Positions 14,192-56,242 of a stretch of 64,000 nucleotides of DNA are shown here, one piece after another. The stretch is from assembly GCF_057098645.1 (NCBI RefSeq), contig NZ_CM169472.1; one strand, written 5' to 3'. Under the pieces are notes generated by a model. That model saw nothing but the letters and a program-made list of their open reading frames with translations. It did no database searches and was not told the DNA's origin. A program made the position numbers and the translations under genes. Position 1 is the first letter of the stretch. Every line of letters begins with the position of its first letter.

Positions 14192-17077
14192 ATGGGCATC
14201 AAACAACACAATGGGAATACCAAAGCCGATCGTCTCGCTGAATTAAAAATCCGTTCGCCCTCAATTCAACTGATAAAATTTGGCGCTATTGGTTTGAATG
14301 CAATTATCTTTTCCCCCCTGCTGATAGCTGCTGATACAGGAAGTCAATATGGCACCAATATTACTATTAATGATGGTGACAGAATTACAGGAGATACCGC
14401 CGATCCATCAGGAAACCTCTATGGTGTAATGACCCCAGCAGGAAACACGCCTGGCAATATCAACTTGGGTAATGATGTCACCGTCAATGTCAACGACGCC
14501 TCTGGATATGCAAAAGGAATCATTATTCAGGGCAAAAACAGCTCCCTGACAGCTAACCGACTCACAGTAGATGTTGTTGGCCAAACCTCTGCCATCGGCA
14601 TTAATTTAATTGGTGACTATACCCATGCTGACTTAGGCACAGGCAGCACCATTAAGAGTAACGATGACGGCATCATTATTGGGCATAGCTCAACACTAAC
14701 AGCCACTCAATTCACCATTGAAAACTCGAACGGTATAGGCCTAACCATCAATGACTATGGCACCAGTGTCGATCTTGGAAGCGGAAGTAAAATCAAGACC
14801 GATGGAAGTACAGGTGTTTATATCGGTGGTCTCAACGGCAATAACGCCAATGGTGCTGCGCGTTTTACGGCGACAGACCTGACAATCGATGTTCAGGGAT
14901 ACAGCGCCATGGGGATAAACGTACAGAAAAACTCTGTTGTCGATCTCGGAACAAACAGTACCATTAAAACCAATGGCGATAATGCTCACGGCCTCTGGAG
15001 CTTTGGCCAGGTTAGCGCGAATGCACTCACTGTTGATGTAACTGGAGCCGCGGCCAATGGCGTCGAAGTTCGTGGTGGTACAACCACTATCGGTGCAGAT
15101 AGCCATATTTCTTCCGCGCAGGGCGGTAGTCTCGTAGCCAGTGGTTCAGACGCGACAATCAATTTTTCTGGCACGGCAGCGCAACGAAACAGCATCTTTT
15201 CCGGCGGTTCTTATGGTGCCTCGGCCCAGACGGCAACGGCTGTTATCAACATGCAAAATACCGATATTACGGTTGATCGTAATGGCAGTCTGGCGCTGGG
15301 TTTGTGGGCGCTCAGCGGCGGTAGAATAACCGGAGACAGTTTGGCTATCACCGGCGCGGCAGGAGCCAGGGGGATTTATGCCATGACCAACAGCCAGATC
15401 GACCTCACGAGCGATCTGGTCATTGATATGAGTACACCCGACCAGATGGCCATCGCAACGCAACATGACGATGGTTATGCCGCCAGCCGCATCAACGCCT
15501 CGGGTCGTATGCTTATCAACGGTAGCGTTCTTTCCAAAGGTGGGCTAATCAATCTGGATATGCACTCTGGGTCGGTTTGGACAGGTTCCTCCCTCAGCGA
15601 TAATGTCAATGGCGGGAAACTGGACGTTGCAATGAATAACAGCGTCTGGAACGTAACAAGTAATTCTAATCTCGACACGCTGGCGCTGAGCCATTCAACT
15701 GTCGATTTTGCCAGCCACGCATCAACTGCCGGCACATTTACCACATTAAACGTAGAGAACCTGAGCGGTAACAGTACCTTTATTATGCGTGCTGATGTTG
15801 TTGGCGAGGGTAATGGCGTTAATAATAAAGGGGATTTATTGAATATCAGCGGGAGTAGTGCTGGTAATCACGTATTGGCTATCCGCAACCAGGGCAGCGA
15901 GGCCACAACGGGAAATGAAGTTCTGACAGTGGTAAAAACCACTGACGGTGCGGCCTCGTTCAGCGCGTCTTCTCAGGTTGAGTTGGGGGGATATCTGTAC
16001 GATGTGCGTAAAAATGGCACTAACTGGGAGCTTTACGCTTCCGGGACAGTTCCGGAACCGACTCCTAATCCTGAACCAACACCGGCTCCCGCTCAGCCTC
16101 CCATAGTCAACCCCGATCCTACGCCTGAACCCGATCCTACGCCTAACCCCACTCCCACACCTAAACCCACCACGACCGCAGATGCTGGCGGCAATTATCT
16201 CAATGTCGGTTACTTATTAAACTATGTTGAAAACCGTACGCTGATGCAACGAATGGGTGACCTGCGAAATCAGAGTAAAGACGGTAATATCTGGCTGCGC
16301 AGTTATGGGGGAAGCCTGGACTCCTTCTCCAGTGGCAAACTGAGCGGCTTTGACATGGGTTACAGCGGTATCCAGTTTGGTGGGGATAAACGTCTCTCTG
16401 ATGAAATGCCGTTGTATGTCGGTCTGTATATTGGCTCAACACATGCATCGCCGGACTATAGCGGAGGCGACGGTACCGCACGTTCAGACTATATGGGAAT
16501 GTACGCCAGTTACATGGCACACAGCGGTTTTTACAGCGATCTCGTTGTAAAAGCATCGCGCCAGAAAAATAGTTTCCACGTACGGGACAGTCAGAACAAC
16601 GGCGTTAACGCCAACGGCACTGCGAATGGATTGAGCATCTCCCTGGAAGCCGGGCAGAGGTTCAACCTGACCCCTACTGGTTATGGGTTCTATATAGAGC
16701 CGCAAACCCAGCTCACATACAGCCACCAGAATGAGATGGCTATGAAGGCGAGTAATGGTCTCAATATACATCTGAATCACTACGAATCGCTGCTGGGGCG
16801 TGCCAGCATGATACTAGGATATGACATCACCGCAGGTAAAAGCCAGCTGAATATCTATGTGAAGACTGGCGCTATCCACGAGTTTTCAGGGGATACAGAA
16901 TATCTGTTGAACAACTCCCGGGAGAAGTACAGTTTCAAAGGTAATGGCTGGAATAATGGCGTGGGAGTCAGTGCACAGTATAACAAACAGCACACATTCT
17001 ACCTCGAAGCGGATTACACGCAGGGTAACCTCTTTGATCAGAAGCAAGTCAACGGAGGATATCGCTTCAGCTTTTAA
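14192..17077 (+). CDS. ycgV: Autotransporter adhesin (pertactin-like passenger, Pro/Thr-rich linker, C-terminal beta-barrel)
   Basis: 961 aa; linker PEPTPNPEPTPAPAQPPIVNPDPTPEPDPTPNPTPTPKPTT; C-terminal ...GGYRFSF; preceded by an ~840-bp AT-rich region. Confidence 0.85.
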   Translation: MGIKQHNGNTKADRLAELKIRSPSIQLIKFGAIGLNAIIFSPLLIAADTGSQYGTNITINDGDRITGDTADPSGNLYGVMTPAGNTPGNINLGNDVTVNVNDASGYAKGIIIQGKNSSLTANRLTVDVVGQTSAIGINLIGDYTHADLGTGSTIKSNDDGIIIGHSSTLTATQFTIENSNGIGLTINDYGTSVDLGSGSKIKTDGSTGVYIGGLNGNNANGAARFTATDLTIDVQGYSAMGINVQKNSVVDLGTNSTIKTNGDNAHGLWSFGQVSANALTVDVTGAAANGVEVRGGTTTIGADSHISSAQGGSLVASGSDATINFSGTAAQRNSIFSGGSYGASAQTATAVINMQNTDITVDRNGSLALGLWALSGGRITGDSLAITGAAGARGIYAMTNSQIDLTSDLVIDMSTPDQMAIATQHDDGYAASRINASGRMLINGSVLSKGGLINLDMHSGSVWTGSSLSDNVNGGKLDVAMNNSVWNVTSNSNLDTLALSHSTVDFASHASTAGTFTTLNVENLSGNSTFIMRADVVGEGNGVNNKGDLLNISGSSAGNHVLAIRNQGSEATTGNEVLTVVKTTDGAASFSASSQVELGGYLYDVRKNGTNWELYASGTVPEPTPNPEPTPAPAQPPIVNPDPTPEPDPTPNPTPTPKPTTTADAGGNYLNVGYLLNYVENRTLMQRMGDLRNQSKDGNIWLRSYGGSLDSFSSGKLSGFDMGYSGIQFGGDKRLSDEMPLYVGLYIGSTHASPDYSGGDGTARSDYMGMYASYMAHSGFYSDLVVKASRQKNSFHVRDSQNNGVNANGTANGLSISLEAGQRFNLTPTGYGFYIEPQTQLTYSHQNEMAMKASNGLNIHLNHYESLLGRASMILGYDITAGKSQLNIYVKTGAIHEFSGDTEYLLNNSREKYSFKGNGWNNGVGVSAQYNKQHTFYLEADYTQGNLFDQKQVNGGYRFSF

Positions 17078-51786: not shown

Positions 51787-51982
51787 GTTCACAGATAAAA
51801 CACTCTCCAGGAAATCCGGGGCGGTTCATTTTGTTGAGTCCATGCCCCCTTTATAAGTAATCCCCCCGGCAAAAATGCCGCGACGGGATTTTACCGAACG
51901 CAGGAAAGCCACTGGAATTCTCCCGTAAGGGATTGTTATATTATAACAGTTCATCGTACTCATTCTGAACAGGAGACTACCA

Positions 51983-52384
51983 ATGAAAATCAAGAGCATC
52001 AGTAAGGCTGTATTGCTGCTTGCACTGCTAACCTCCACGAGCTTTGCTGCGGGTAAGAATGTCAATGTTGAGTTCAGAAAAGGCCATAGCAGCGCTCAGT
52101 ACTCCGGCGAAATAAAGGGATACGATTACGATACATATACCTTCTATGCCAAAAAAGGTCAGAAAGTGCATGTGAGTATCTCTAATGAAGGCGCTGATAC
52201 TTACCTCTTCGGGCCAGGAATCGATGATTCTGTTGATTTATCCAGATATTCCCCTGAACTCGATAGTCACGGACAATACTCACTCCCTGCTTCTGGCAAA
52301 TATGAGCTGCGAGTGCTGCAAACCCGAAACGACGCCCGTAAAAACAAAACTAAAAAATATAACGTCGATATTCAAATTAAGTAA
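51983..52384 (+). CDS. pliG: Periplasmic inhibitor of g-type lysozyme
   Basis: 133 aa with signal peptide; conserved position between ycgL and ycgJ. Confidence 0.7.
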
Positions 52385-52856
52385 ATGTCAACCGACGGGG
52401 AGTCTCCCCGTCATAAACGTTGACGCCCCACTCCTCTCTGTCGCTCAAGAGGTTAATGACGAATAGAACATAATGTAAACAAGACATCACTCACGACACA
52501 TAAATAACATCTTTGTGGTGGTTTGATTGATTTTTCCACTCCGCTTACCATCTACACCAAAATAACGATCATCACGGCATAATTTTTCTTTAACATCGCA
52601 AAATACACCGTTAGCGAATGTAAATTCGCTGGGATCGTAGCCTTGTAATGATTGTAAGTTTTCAGCGGCTTTTTCGCCGAGATATTTCCTTGTTAACTCT
52701 GGGGAAATGCCATCTGAGTTCACACAAATATACGGGTCGCAAACAACGCCGCACGCCGGAGATTGAAGTCCGCCAGCGTCATGTCCAGACGCCATTGATG
52801 AGAACATCATTAGACTGGCCCCCTGAATCTCCAGACAACCAGTATCACTTAAATAA

Positions 52857-53267
52857 GTGATAGTCTTAATACTAGTTTTTAGACTAGTCATTGGAGAACA
52901 GATGATTGATGTCTTAGGGCCGGAGAAACGCAGACGGCGTACCACACAGGAAAAGATCGCAATTGTTCAGCAGAGCTTTGAACCGGGGATGACGGTCTCC
53001 CTCGTTGCCCGGCAACATGGTGTAGCAGCCAGCCAGTTATTTCTCTGGCGTAAGCAATACCAGGAAGGAAGTCTTACTGCTGTGGCCGCCGGAGAACAGG
53101 TTGTTCCTGCCTCTGAACTTGCTGCCGCCATGAAGCAGATTAAAGAACTCCAGCGCCTGCTCGGCAAGAAAACGATGGAAAATGAACTCCTCAAAGAAGC
53201 CGTTGAATATGGACGGGCAAAAAAGTGGATAGCGCACGCGCCCTTATTGCCCGGGGATGGGGAGTAA
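52857..53267 (+). CDS. insC: IS2 transposase InsC
   Basis: 136 aa [26 protein letters not shown]... Confidence 0.95.
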
Positions 53268-54130
53268 GCTTAGTCAGCCGTTGTCTCCGGGTGTCGCGTG
53301 CGCAGTTGCACGTCATTCTCAGACGAACCGATGACTGGATGGATGGCCGCCGCAGTCGTCACACTGATGATACGGATGTGCTTCTCCGTATACACCATGT
53401 TATCGGAGAGCTGCCCACGTATGGTTATCGTCGGGTATGGGCGCTGCTTCGCAGACAGGCAGAACTTGATGGTATGCCTGCGATCAATGCCAAACGTGTT
53501 TACCGGATCATGCGCCAGAATGCGCTGTTGCTTGAGCGAAAACCTGCTGTACCGCCATCGAAACGGGCACATACAGGCAGAGTGGCCGTGAAAGAAAGCA
53601 ATCAGCGATGGTGCTCTGACGGGTTCGAGTTCTGCTGTGATAACGGAGAGAGACTGCGTGTCACGTTCGCGCTGGACTGCTGTGATCGTGAGGCACTGCA
53701 CTGGGCGGTGACTACCGGCGGCTTCAACAGTGAAACAGTACAGGACGTCATGCTGGGAGCGGTGGAACGCCGCTTCGGCAACGATCTTCCGTCGTCTCCA
53801 GTGGAGTGGCTGACGGATAATGGTTCATGCTACCGGGCTAATGAAACACGCCAGTTCGCCCGGATGTTGGGACTTGAACCGAAGAACACGGCGGTGCGGA
53901 GTCCGGAGAGTAACGGAATAGCAGAGAGCTTCGTGAAAACGATAAAGCGTGACTACATCAGTATCATGCCCAAACCAGACGGGTTAACGGCAGCAAAGAA
54001 CCTTGCAGAGGCGTTCGAGCATTATAACGAATGGCATCCGCATAGTGCGCTGGGTTATCGCTCGCCACGGGAATATCTGCGGCAGCGGGCTTGTAATGGG
54101 TTAAGTGATAACAGATGTCTGGAAATATAG
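53225..54130 (+). CDS. insD: IS2 transposase InsD (-1 frame)
   Basis: 301 aa, DDE integrase-like. Confidence 0.95.
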
Positions 54131-54710
54131 GGGCAAATCCAATCATCCCCACACCTGACAATCCGATATAAAAAATACGCATCATATTCATAGCACATCC
54201 TGATAATCCAACCGTACAACACTTATGCTCATTTCATCATCAATCCGTAATCAAAACCGCTGACCTGGACGAGTTACGATGACCTGACAGAAGTATCAGA
54301 CGTCTTCTGCGGTTTCTATGATAGAGCAATTCTGTGGCGGATATTAAGATAACGGGTATCTGTTCTTTAATGATGCTGCAAAAAATGGAAAGTTAAGAAA
54401 GCCTGGCGTGGTGAAAAAATACACTTGCCTCAATACTGGATATTTAAACAGGTCTGAAGATGCTGTCACGATTAGGGTGCGGAAAAAGGAAGCGTAAATA
54501 AGAACAATCAAAAGTACGACGGCAATGGGTTGATTGACAAGGGTATTTTTTAAGCTATGAATCAGCGCCATTTATCACAGAATAGACTTTTACTCTGAAT
54601 AAATGGGAGGGTGACTTGCCTCAATATAATCCAGACTATAACATGCCTTATAGTCTTCGGAACATCATCGCGCGCTGGCGATGATTAATAGCTAATTGAG
54701 TAAGGCCAGG

Positions 54711-55406
54711 ATGTCAAACACGCCAATCGAGCTTAAAGGCAGTAGCTTCACTTTATCTGTGGTTCATCTGCATGAGGCAGAACCTAAGGTTATCCATCAG
54801 GCGCTGGAAGACAAAATCGCTCAGGCCCCCGCATTTTTAAAACATGCCCCCGTTGTACTCAACGTCAGTGCACTGGAAGACCCGGTAAACTGGTCAGCGA
54901 TGCATAAGGCGGTTTCGGCAACCGGTTTGCGGGTTATTGGCGTAAGTGGCTGCAAAGATGCGCAACTTAAAGCCGAAATTGAAAAGATGGGGCTGCCTAT
55001 CCTGACGGAAGGAAAGGAAAAAGCGCCGCGTCCAGCTCCCGCACCGCAGGCTCCAGCGCAAAATACAACGCCGGTCACAAAAACGCGTTTAATAGATACC
55101 CCGGTGCGTTCCGGTCAGCGTATTTATGCTCCACAATGTGATCTGATTGTTACAAGCCACGTTAGCGCTGGGGCCGAATTGATTGCCGATGGTAACATTC
55201 ATGTCTATGGCATGATGCGCGGTCGTGCGCTGGCAGGGGCAAGTGGTGACCGGGAAACGCAAATATTTTGTACGAACCTGATGGCGGAACTGGTGTCCAT
55301 CGCAGGTGAATACTGGCTGAGTGATCAAATCCCAGCAGAATTTTATGGCAAAGCGGCGCGACTGCAGTTAGTCGAAAACGCTTTGACCGTTCAACCGTTA
55401 AATTGA
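54711..55406 (+). CDS. minC: Septum site-determining protein MinC
   Basis: 231 aa from ATG 54711 ([15 protein letters not shown]...). Confidence 0.95.
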
Positions 55407-55429: not shown

Positions 55430-56242
55430 ATGGCACGCATTATTGTTGTTACTTCGGGCAAAGGGGGGGTTGGTAAGACAACCTCCAGCGCGGCCATCGC
55501 CACTGGTTTGGCCCAGAAGGGAAAGAAAACTGTCGTGATAGATTTTGATATCGGCCTGCGTAATCTCGACCTGATTATGGGTTGCGAACGCCGGGTCGTT
55601 TACGATTTCGTCAACGTCATTCAGGGCGATGCAACGCTAAATCAGGCGTTAATTAAAGATAAGCGTACTGAAAATCTCTATATTCTGCCGGCATCGCAAA
55701 CACGCGATAAAGATGCCCTCACCCGTGAAGGGGTCGCTAAAGTTCTTGATGATCTGAAAGCGATGGATTTTGAATTTATCGTTTGTGACTCCCCGGCAGG
55801 GATTGAAACCGGTGCGTTAATGGCACTCTATTTTGCAGACGAAGCCATTATTACCACCAACCCGGAAGTCTCTTCAGTACGCGACTCTGACCGTATTTTA
55901 GGCATTCTGGCGTCAAAATCACGCCGCGCAGAAAATGGCGAAGAGCCTATTAAAGAGCACCTGCTGTTAACGCGCTATAACCCAGGCCGCGTAAGCAGAG
56001 GTGACATGCTGAGCATGGAAGATGTGCTGGAGATCCTGCGCATCAAACTCGTCGGCGTGATCCCAGAGGATCAATCAGTATTGCGCGCCTCTAACCAGGG
56101 TGAACCGGTCATTCTCGACATTAACGCCGATGCGGGTAAAGCCTACGCAGATACCGTAGAACGTCTGTTGGGAGAAGAACGTCCTTTCCGCTTCATTGAA
56201 GAAGAGAAGAAAGGCTTCCTCAAACGCTTGTTCGGAGGATAA
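55430..56242 (+). CDS. minD: Septum site-determining ATPase MinD
   Basis: 270 aa; deviant Walker A GKGGVGKTT. Confidence 0.95.
   Translation: MARIIVVTSGKGGVGKTTSSAAIATGLAQKGKKTVVIDFDIGLRNLDLIMGCERRVVYDFVNVIQGDATLNQALIKDKRTENLYILPASQTRDKDALTREGVAKVLDDLKAMDFEFIVCDSPAGIETGALMALYFADEAIITTNPEVSSVRDSDRILGILASKSRRAENGEEPIKEHLLLTRYNPGRVSRGDMLSMEDVLEILRIKLVGVIPEDQSVLRASNQGEPVILDINADAGKAYADTVERLLGEERPFRFIEEEKKGFLKRLFGG

Follow-up and report, generated by a model that had tools for sequence, protein, structure and literature searches.

An intact IS2 in the leader-coding part of ycgJ on an Escherichia coli O145:H28-type chromosome: a shared lineage allele and a matching scar in relatives

The gene ycgJ is interrupted by an intact copy of the insertion sequence IS2 in the 64,000-nucleotide stretch of DNA analysed here (the window, whose numbering is used throughout). 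The reading that is held with high confidence has three parts: (i) IS2 lies in the part of ycgJ that codes for the N-terminal leader and has turned the gene into a null allele; (ii) this allele is shared by a lineage and is older than a neighbouring IS629; and (iii) the interruption is reversible by excision, as the scar found at this site in the strains RM12761 and RM13516 would attest. In terms of mechanism, IS2 inserted at codon 16/17 of ycgJ, duplicating the pentanucleotide ATCAT; IS629 landed later, 980 bp away; and, in the RM12761/RM13516 lineage, an excision would have removed 1331 bp by way of the 3-nt microhomology ATC, leaving a +5 frameshift scar. The feature is a familiar element, behaving in a familiar way, in an unremarkable gene.

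IS2, among the best-known insertion sequences, belongs to the IS3 family, moves by a copy-out/paste-in pathway and produces its transposase, OrfAB, through a -1 frameshift. The copy under study (Table 1) can be read directly as a full-length element of 1331 bp with the 5-bp duplication ATCAT present on both sides, just as the earlier note had described it. Its left terminus, from 52811, is TAGACTGGCCCCC (also given as TAGACTGG and, in a longer form, as TAGACTGGCCCCCTGAATCTCC); its right terminus, at 54141, is GGGGCAAATCCA, also given as CAAATCCA, and the final five nucleotides of this end are ATCCA. The terminal inverted repeats, whose extent comes from an alignment by eye with one gap, run as TAGACTGGCCCC...TATCACTTAA on the left and as TGGATTTGCCCC...TATCACTTAA in the reverse complement of the right end. 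Translation across the -1 frameshift gives a stop-free conceptual OrfAB of 409 aa, with 100% identity to the protein of a copy in K-12 MC1000 which carries the annotation 'IS2 family transposase, programmed frameshift'. At the DNA level, the element shows 99.7% identity to this same K-12 copy (four differences, all of them silent or non-coding), 100% identity to an annotated IS2 in FDAARGOS_943 and 99.9% identity to many other copies. Judged by its length, its imperfect ends closing in ...CA, the 5-bp duplication, the A6G frameshift site, the HTH and rve domains of its products and its near identity to the reference, the element is a standard, intact and already known IS2; with intact ends and ORFs, it is presumably able to transpose.

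Table 1. Positions of the features of the window and of IS2 insertions mapped in other genomes; the latter are given in window-equivalent coordinates.
Feature	Position	Strand or orientation	Basis or remark
IS2 (IS3 family), full length, 1331 bp	52811..54141	+	Direct reading; transposase genes point to minC
IS2 left terminal inverted repeat, ~41 bp, imperfect	52811..52851	+	Termini compared
IS2 right terminal inverted repeat, closing in GGGGCAAATCCA	54102..54141	+	Termini compared
Target-site duplication ATCAT, left copy	52806..52810	.	Direct reading
Target-site duplication ATCAT, right copy	54142..54146	.	Direct reading
IS2 orfA, 121 aa, helix-turn-helix	52902..53267	+	Pfam HTH_Tnp_1, 70.2 bits
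A6G slippery site AAAAAAG, -1 frameshift to OrfAB	53219..53225	+	Sequence motif located
IS2 orfB, 301 aa from GTG, DDE integrase core	53225..54130	+	Pfam rve 67.8, rve_3 66.5, HTH_21 43.2 bits
ycgJ 5' stub: start, codons 1-16 and 2 nt of codon 17	54142..54191	-	Direct reading
Chimeric ORF, 75 aa: ycgJ 5' stub running into IS2 right end	53964..54191	-	Direct reading
ycgJ 3' part: 107 codons from in-frame ATG-ATG, and stop	52487..52810	-	Direct reading
IS629, 1310 bp, flanked by TTT	50519-51828		99.9% identity to RM12761 and C325 copies
ALIL frameshift pseudoknot within IS629	50854-50970		
Promoter-like site, the sole one in the interval	54318..54347	-	Consensus scan, 9/12 matches; consensus match only
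minC (context)	54711..55406	+	Start agrees with 696-nt minC annotated in relatives; sequence unaffected
IS2 in B379	52162	forward	
IS2 in 2017.17.03CC	52208	forward	
IS2 in 1217KP	52430	forward	
IS2 in a7	52808	forward	IS2 variant of 95.5% identity, 2 bp from the insertion of the window
IS2 in FAHZZU6014	54191	forward	At ycgJ ATG
IS2 in PSS-15, SHP24, FDN-24 and FDN-9	54316	forward	First three mapped; FDN-9 by same hit geometry as FDN-24
IS2 in K-12 MC1000	54455	forward	
IS2 in TK3896	52400	reverse	
IS2 in ER1821R and ER2683	52470	reverse	ER1821R mapped; ER2683 by same hit geometry
IS2 in YJ6, ETEC6 and C21	54312	reverse	
IS2 in APEC O78	54428	reverse	

The interrupted gene lies on the minus strand, with its ATG (54191) and its stop codon (52487) on opposite sides of IS2. 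When the element and one copy of the repeat are removed (52487-52810 joined to 54147-54191 by script), an open frame of 369 nt, coding for 122 aa, is obtained. The earlier note had already reported the interruption and the restorable 122-aa frame and had assigned the latter to YcgJ, and all of this holds: the restored protein scores 98.5 bits against the Pfam profile PF05666 YcgJ (cut-off 25), covers profile positions 1-87 of 87, exactly matches a protein present on at least 1000 public contigs and does not differ from the YcgJ of the E. coli O145:H28 wild-type allele. Furthermore, the gene order is pliG-ycgJ-minC, with ycgJ divergent from minC, and the same order is annotated in a7, RM12761, C325, K-12 MC1000 and others. 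Judged by these matches and by this order, the reconstructed frame is the true YcgJ at its orthologous position.

The PF05666 domain spans residues 30-118 of the restored protein and, in consequence, the break caused by IS2 falls within the N-terminal leader. On the minus strand, the ATG at 54191 opens MNMMRIFYIGLSGVGM and the frame then enters IS2. The break had previously been placed after codon 15, which is right to within the duplication (ATCAT corresponds to nt 46-50 of the ycgJ CDS), but the native frame runs unbroken up to nt 50, that is, through codon 16 and two nucleotides of codon 17. To judge by inspection, this leader, with its basic residue, its hydrophobic stretch and its small residues (ASG), resembles an export signal, and YcgJ is probably exported. 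The 3' part of the gene is detached from the promoter and from the first 16 residues, and its 107-aa product is named 'YcgJ family protein' in draft assemblies. Since IS2 parts the promoter, the ribosome-binding site and the first 16 codons from the remainder, this ycgJ is a null allele. To our knowledge, ycgJ encodes a small protein with no known function. The literature search found no paper linking ycgJ with IS2, and nothing useful on the E. coli YcgJ protein in the papers that mention the gene.

Regarding the host chromosome, the right flank of the insertion (9.85 kb) is 100.0% identical to E. coli O145:H28 RM12761, RM13516, RM13514, RM9872 and others, as well as to C325, and the ~50 kb to the left show ~13-18 substitutions relative to O145:H28-type genomes, IS elements aside. 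By this degree of identity, the host is an E. coli O145:H28-type chromosome. The neighbouring IS629, located between ycgL and pliG, shares 795 bp at 100% identity with a fragment that bears the IS629 annotation; at this ycgL-pliG site, it is absent from all the complete genomes searched.

The exact junction of IS2 and ycgJ was found in none of the 5426 complete RefSeq E. coli genomes. By exact-protein look-up, the 75-aa junction ORF (ycgJ codons 1-16 plus the IS2 right end) was retrieved from 3 public contigs and the 107-aa remainder of ycgJ from 16 to 23. The evidence for sharing consists of draft contigs that end inside IS2, and two groups can be differentiated: (i) L021, L024 and L028, which contain the left junction of IS2 at 99.95-100% identity; and (ii) L018, L019 and L020, which contain the right junction, each with different private SNPs and all without the G that the window has at 55468. 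Within the first group, L024 and L028 carry both IS2 and IS629, as in the window, and L021 (from a 100-kb contig) carries IS2 without IS629; hence, IS2 arrived first and IS629 came later in a sub-branch. According to these junctions, the insertion is a lineage allele shared by ~20 public assemblies and not a private recent event.

The earlier note had regarded the insertion as probably recent. A recent event private to this strain would agree with the perfect duplication, with a fully intact IS2 that encodes the same OrfAB as the K-12 copy, with the lack of the junction among the complete genomes and with the predominance of the wild-type state in those complete O145:H28 genomes that are closest to the window. 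Nevertheless, this alternative is unlikely and the claim is not upheld: the same junctions recur in several independent draft assemblies, with different private SNPs and both with and without the IS629 that IS2 predates; the matching scar of RM12761/RM13516, described below, requires an earlier occupied state; and perfect duplications and intact IS copies give no clock of insertion age.

A SNP comparison over ~50 kb, with O157:H7 as outgroup, yields roughly the following order: the window, then RM12761, then (C325, Z0422) and (RM9872, RM13514). The local tree is weak and nearly a star, in which the window is basal on two sites, both in ycgV, that could reflect one recombination event, and RM12761 is placed by one site. 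Two other candidate signals were discarded: (i) the grouping of the window with RM12761 by a shared T at 52403, because the O157:H7 outgroup also has T, which makes this state ancestral and uninformative; and (ii) seven metagenome contigs from diverged E. coli that start at the insertion nucleotide and might have been taken for further insertions. Upstream of the start of these contigs, a single base can be seen, and it is the G of the wild type instead of the A of IS2, so they are ordinary contig ends selected by the exact-protein look-up.

A second alternative is that IS2 alters the transcription of minCDE, either by means of a fusion promoter that uses the -35 element of its right end or by read-through from the transposase promoter. 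Such an influence had been suggested together with a position 520 bp upstream of minC. Actually, the IS2 end lies 569 nt from the minC ATG (54711), and the value of 520 is the distance between the ATG of ycgJ and that of minC (519 nt between them). IS2 and minC are read in the same direction, and IS2 right-end -35 elements form fusion promoters elsewhere, for instance, at ampC and acrEF (review PMC9330008). Furthermore, the scan predicts nothing resembling a terminator from orfB to minC, so that read-through toward minC from a weak IS2 promoter may occur. Against this, the consensus scan returned no plus-strand promoter-like site at or near the right end of IS2, and a fusion promoter, which was looked for there, was rejected, with no suitable -10 in place. 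The ycgJ-minC intergenic region is intact, and the minus-strand site that it contains is probably the intact ycgJ promoter. In addition, viable strains, K-12 laboratory strains included, carry IS2 in either orientation far nearer to minC (54312/54316, 54428 and 54455). An effect on minCDE is, in consequence, quite unlikely, and nothing points to altered cell division.

The alleles of this site in O145:H28 relatives bear on the reversibility of the insertion. On the plus strand, the wild type reads GAGAAC ATCAT CCCC; the window reads GAGAAC ATCAT [IS2 ...AAATCCA] ATCAT CCCC; and RM12761, whose ycgJ is annotated as frameshifted (374 nt), reads GAGAAC ATCCA ATCAT CCCC. Both RM12761 and RM13516, complete O145:H28 genomes of strains from the Belgian ice-cream outbreak, have the wild type plus ATCCA, the five bases in which IS2 ends, directly next to the right repeat. 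Taking exactly 1331 bp out of the window yields the scar allele, with the join at ATC, common to the left duplication and to the IS2-terminal ATCCA. Relative to the occupied site, the left repeat and all of IS2 except its last 5 nt are gone, which leaves the +5 frameshift; the deletion takes out IS2, and its join uses a short microhomology located at the ends of the element or close to them. This exact +5 scar is present in 2 of the 5426 complete genomes, and its 46-aa product is found on 34 contigs. The scar cannot give rise to a clean occupied site and, hence, the occupied state preceded the scar in an ancestor of RM12761/RM13516, unless the same nucleotide was hit twice. The scar would descend either from the very insertion seen in the window or from a further hit on that nucleotide.

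It might be argued that the five additional bases of RM12761/RM13516 are unrelated to IS2, as a product of slippage or sequencing error that would be silent on the age of the insertion. The region does contain short ATC/ATG repeats, and C325 and two Korean isolates possess a +3 in-frame allele (GAGAAC ATC ATCAT CCCC; 123-aa product on 172 contigs) which could be plain triplet slippage or, else, a join at AT. However, the bases added in the scar do not duplicate local sequence; ATCCA followed by ATCAT reproduces the IS2 right junction of the window in both nucleotide position and orientation, with a random 5-mer match expected at ~1 in 1024; the scar appears in two finished genomes, apart from the contigs that hold its product; and an insertion of the a7 type, 2 bp away, does not fit the scar and cannot yield it. 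An origin unrelated to IS2 is thus very unlikely. Finally, the misplacement of an IS2 copy into ycgJ by the assembler, conceivable for an element that is multi-copy in most E. coli, has a negligible probability, given two clean junctions, the 5-bp duplication typical of IS2 and the same left and right junctions in independent assemblies.

The O145:H28 ycgJ alleles might all be alternative removals of one ancestral IS2, whose insertion the window would preserve: (i) the wild type via ATCAT; (ii) the +5 allele via ATC; and (iii) the +3 allele via AT (5, 3 and 2 nt of microhomology, respectively). This extension is tentative, and we lean towards doubt.

[quoted passage not shown] The gene iee has been scored as present in both RM13514 and RM13516 (PMC5567499), and the serotypes described as iee carriers include O145:H28 (PMC9397093); the 64 kb of the window do not contain this locus. 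The literature search found no paper showing an action of IEE on IS2 specifically; in general terms, the literature speaks of 'IS3 family members'. The ATC join would fit an IEE-type excision, with IEE as its putative agent.

In other genomes, IS2 occurs at 12 or more distinct sites of the pliG-ycgJ-minC stretch, and the 15 other mapped IS2 insertions of the region all have 5-bp duplications. The copies at 54316 show 99.2%, 99.85% and 95.7% identity and include variants ~57 substitutions apart; the re-use of sites by IS2 is real here, and a second hit on the same nucleotide in the ancestry of RM12761 is conceivable. An orientation bias of IS2 in the region was rejected as an artefact of query design, since artificial reverse junctions gave 8 more records at 4 sites. 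Regarding the control flanks, those of umuC, dadA and ymgE/ycgR gave 0 IS2 insertion records, and the umuD-hlyE flank gave 11, a result that led to the rejection of the region as a unique IS2 hotspot. The G+C content amounts to 40-44% in the IS2-prone stretches versus 47-55% in the three IS2-free control flanks. By these records, IS2 favours this AT-rich, dispensable stretch, but not uniquely.

The relevance of these observations is modest and threefold: (i) the ycgJ::IS2 allele is a sublineage marker within a group of Shiga-toxin-producing E. coli that is of clinical importance; (ii) the occupied site of the window and the +5 scar of its sister lineage (the Belgian outbreak strains) would form a before/after pair for natural IS excision; and (iii) the case warns against taking an intact IS with a perfect duplication as proof of a recent insertion. 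If one ancestral IS2 had indeed undergone several removals, the locus would document the IEE-type excision of IS2 in nature, and ycgJ would be a simple lineage marker.

Three known systems can be compared with the case described here. First, the IS2 of E. coli K-12 has in common with the present copy the length of 1331 bp, the ~41-bp imperfect repeats, the 5-bp duplication, the A6G site and an identical OrfAB, and the window copy differs from it only in its location (ycgJ) and in four base changes. Second, the other IS2 insertions of the pliG-ycgJ-minC stretch (a7, FAHZZU6014, K-12 MC1000 and the NEB K-12 strains) belong to the same family, have 5-bp duplications and fall in the same 1-kb AT-rich stretch, but their sites, orientations and variants (95.5-99.9% identity) differ, and they mostly leave ycgJ intact. 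Third, the likeness to IEE-type IS excision lies in a lineage for which iee has been reported, an intact IS3-family element, and an IS-sized deletion in a sister lineage, with short microhomology and of the near-precise/partial class; by contrast, the element here is IS2 and the event would be one read from natural alleles. Moreover, unlike the lacZ case of IEE excision, the ycgJ scar leaves a frameshift and the gene is not reactivated.

In two complete O145:H28 genomes, RM12761 and RM13516, ycgJ carries an extra ATCCA over the wild type, located exactly at the site occupied by IS2 in the window (window-equivalent 52806-54146). Judging by its sequence, this allele is a frameshift scar matching the right junction of IS2. 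At the same position, the ycgJ of C325, Z1323HEC0422 and Z1323HEC0399 presents three additional in-frame nucleotides (ATC). Furthermore, seven contigs from gut metagenomes, belonging to diverged E. coli (L022, L023, L025-L027, L029 and L030), start at most one base from the insertion point; in all of them, the upstream base is that of the wild type, and these starts are probably chance contig ends picked by the exact-protein look-up.

The window also harbors an IS629 copy (see table), separated from IS2 by 980 bp. Among complete E. coli genomes, none has IS629 at this ycgL-pliG site; both elements are present, as in the window, in two draft contigs (L024 and L028).

Features of the window
Feature	Position	Remarks
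478-aa ORF	36587-38023	Function unknown; adjoins dadX
ycgV	14192-17077	Autotransporter gene
IS629	50519-51828	1310 bp; TTT on both sides; between ycgL and pliG
ALIL frameshift pseudoknot	50854-50970	Inside IS629

The window's basal placement among the O145:H28 genomes comes from two SNPs, both within ycgV, a location that may point to a recombination tract. Regarding its integrity, ycgV is unbroken in the window, C325 and Z1323HEC0422. RM9872 and RM13514 carry an IS629 that disrupts the gene, and in RM12761 both an IS629 and a group II intron interrupt it.

The dadX-adjacent ORF is likewise variable: it is whole in the window and Z1323HEC0422, and split by IS3-family elements, at differing positions and orientations, in RM12761 (which also shows a 9-nt deletion in this ORF) and C325. 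In RM9872 and RM13514, a shorter ORF is annotated at the locus, with an IS3-family element directly beside it. A 12-nt repeat within the ORF, GACTGAAAGAAA (near 37016), varies among genomes.

In other E. coli genomes, the pliG-ycgJ-minC stretch contains at least 12 separate IS2 sites, in both orientations (window-equivalent 52162-52470 and 54191-54455). Within this stretch, the spot TGCGGTTTC (54312/54316), which adjoins the predicted ycgJ promoter, is occupied by differing IS2 variants in seven genomes. As for the umuD-hlyE intergenic region (window 47300-48100), used as control query and likewise AT-rich (39.5% G+C), 11 complete genomes have an IS2 at most 650 bp away. The K-12 laboratory strains MC1000, ER1821R and ER2683 have their own IS2 insertions in pliG-ycgJ-minC.
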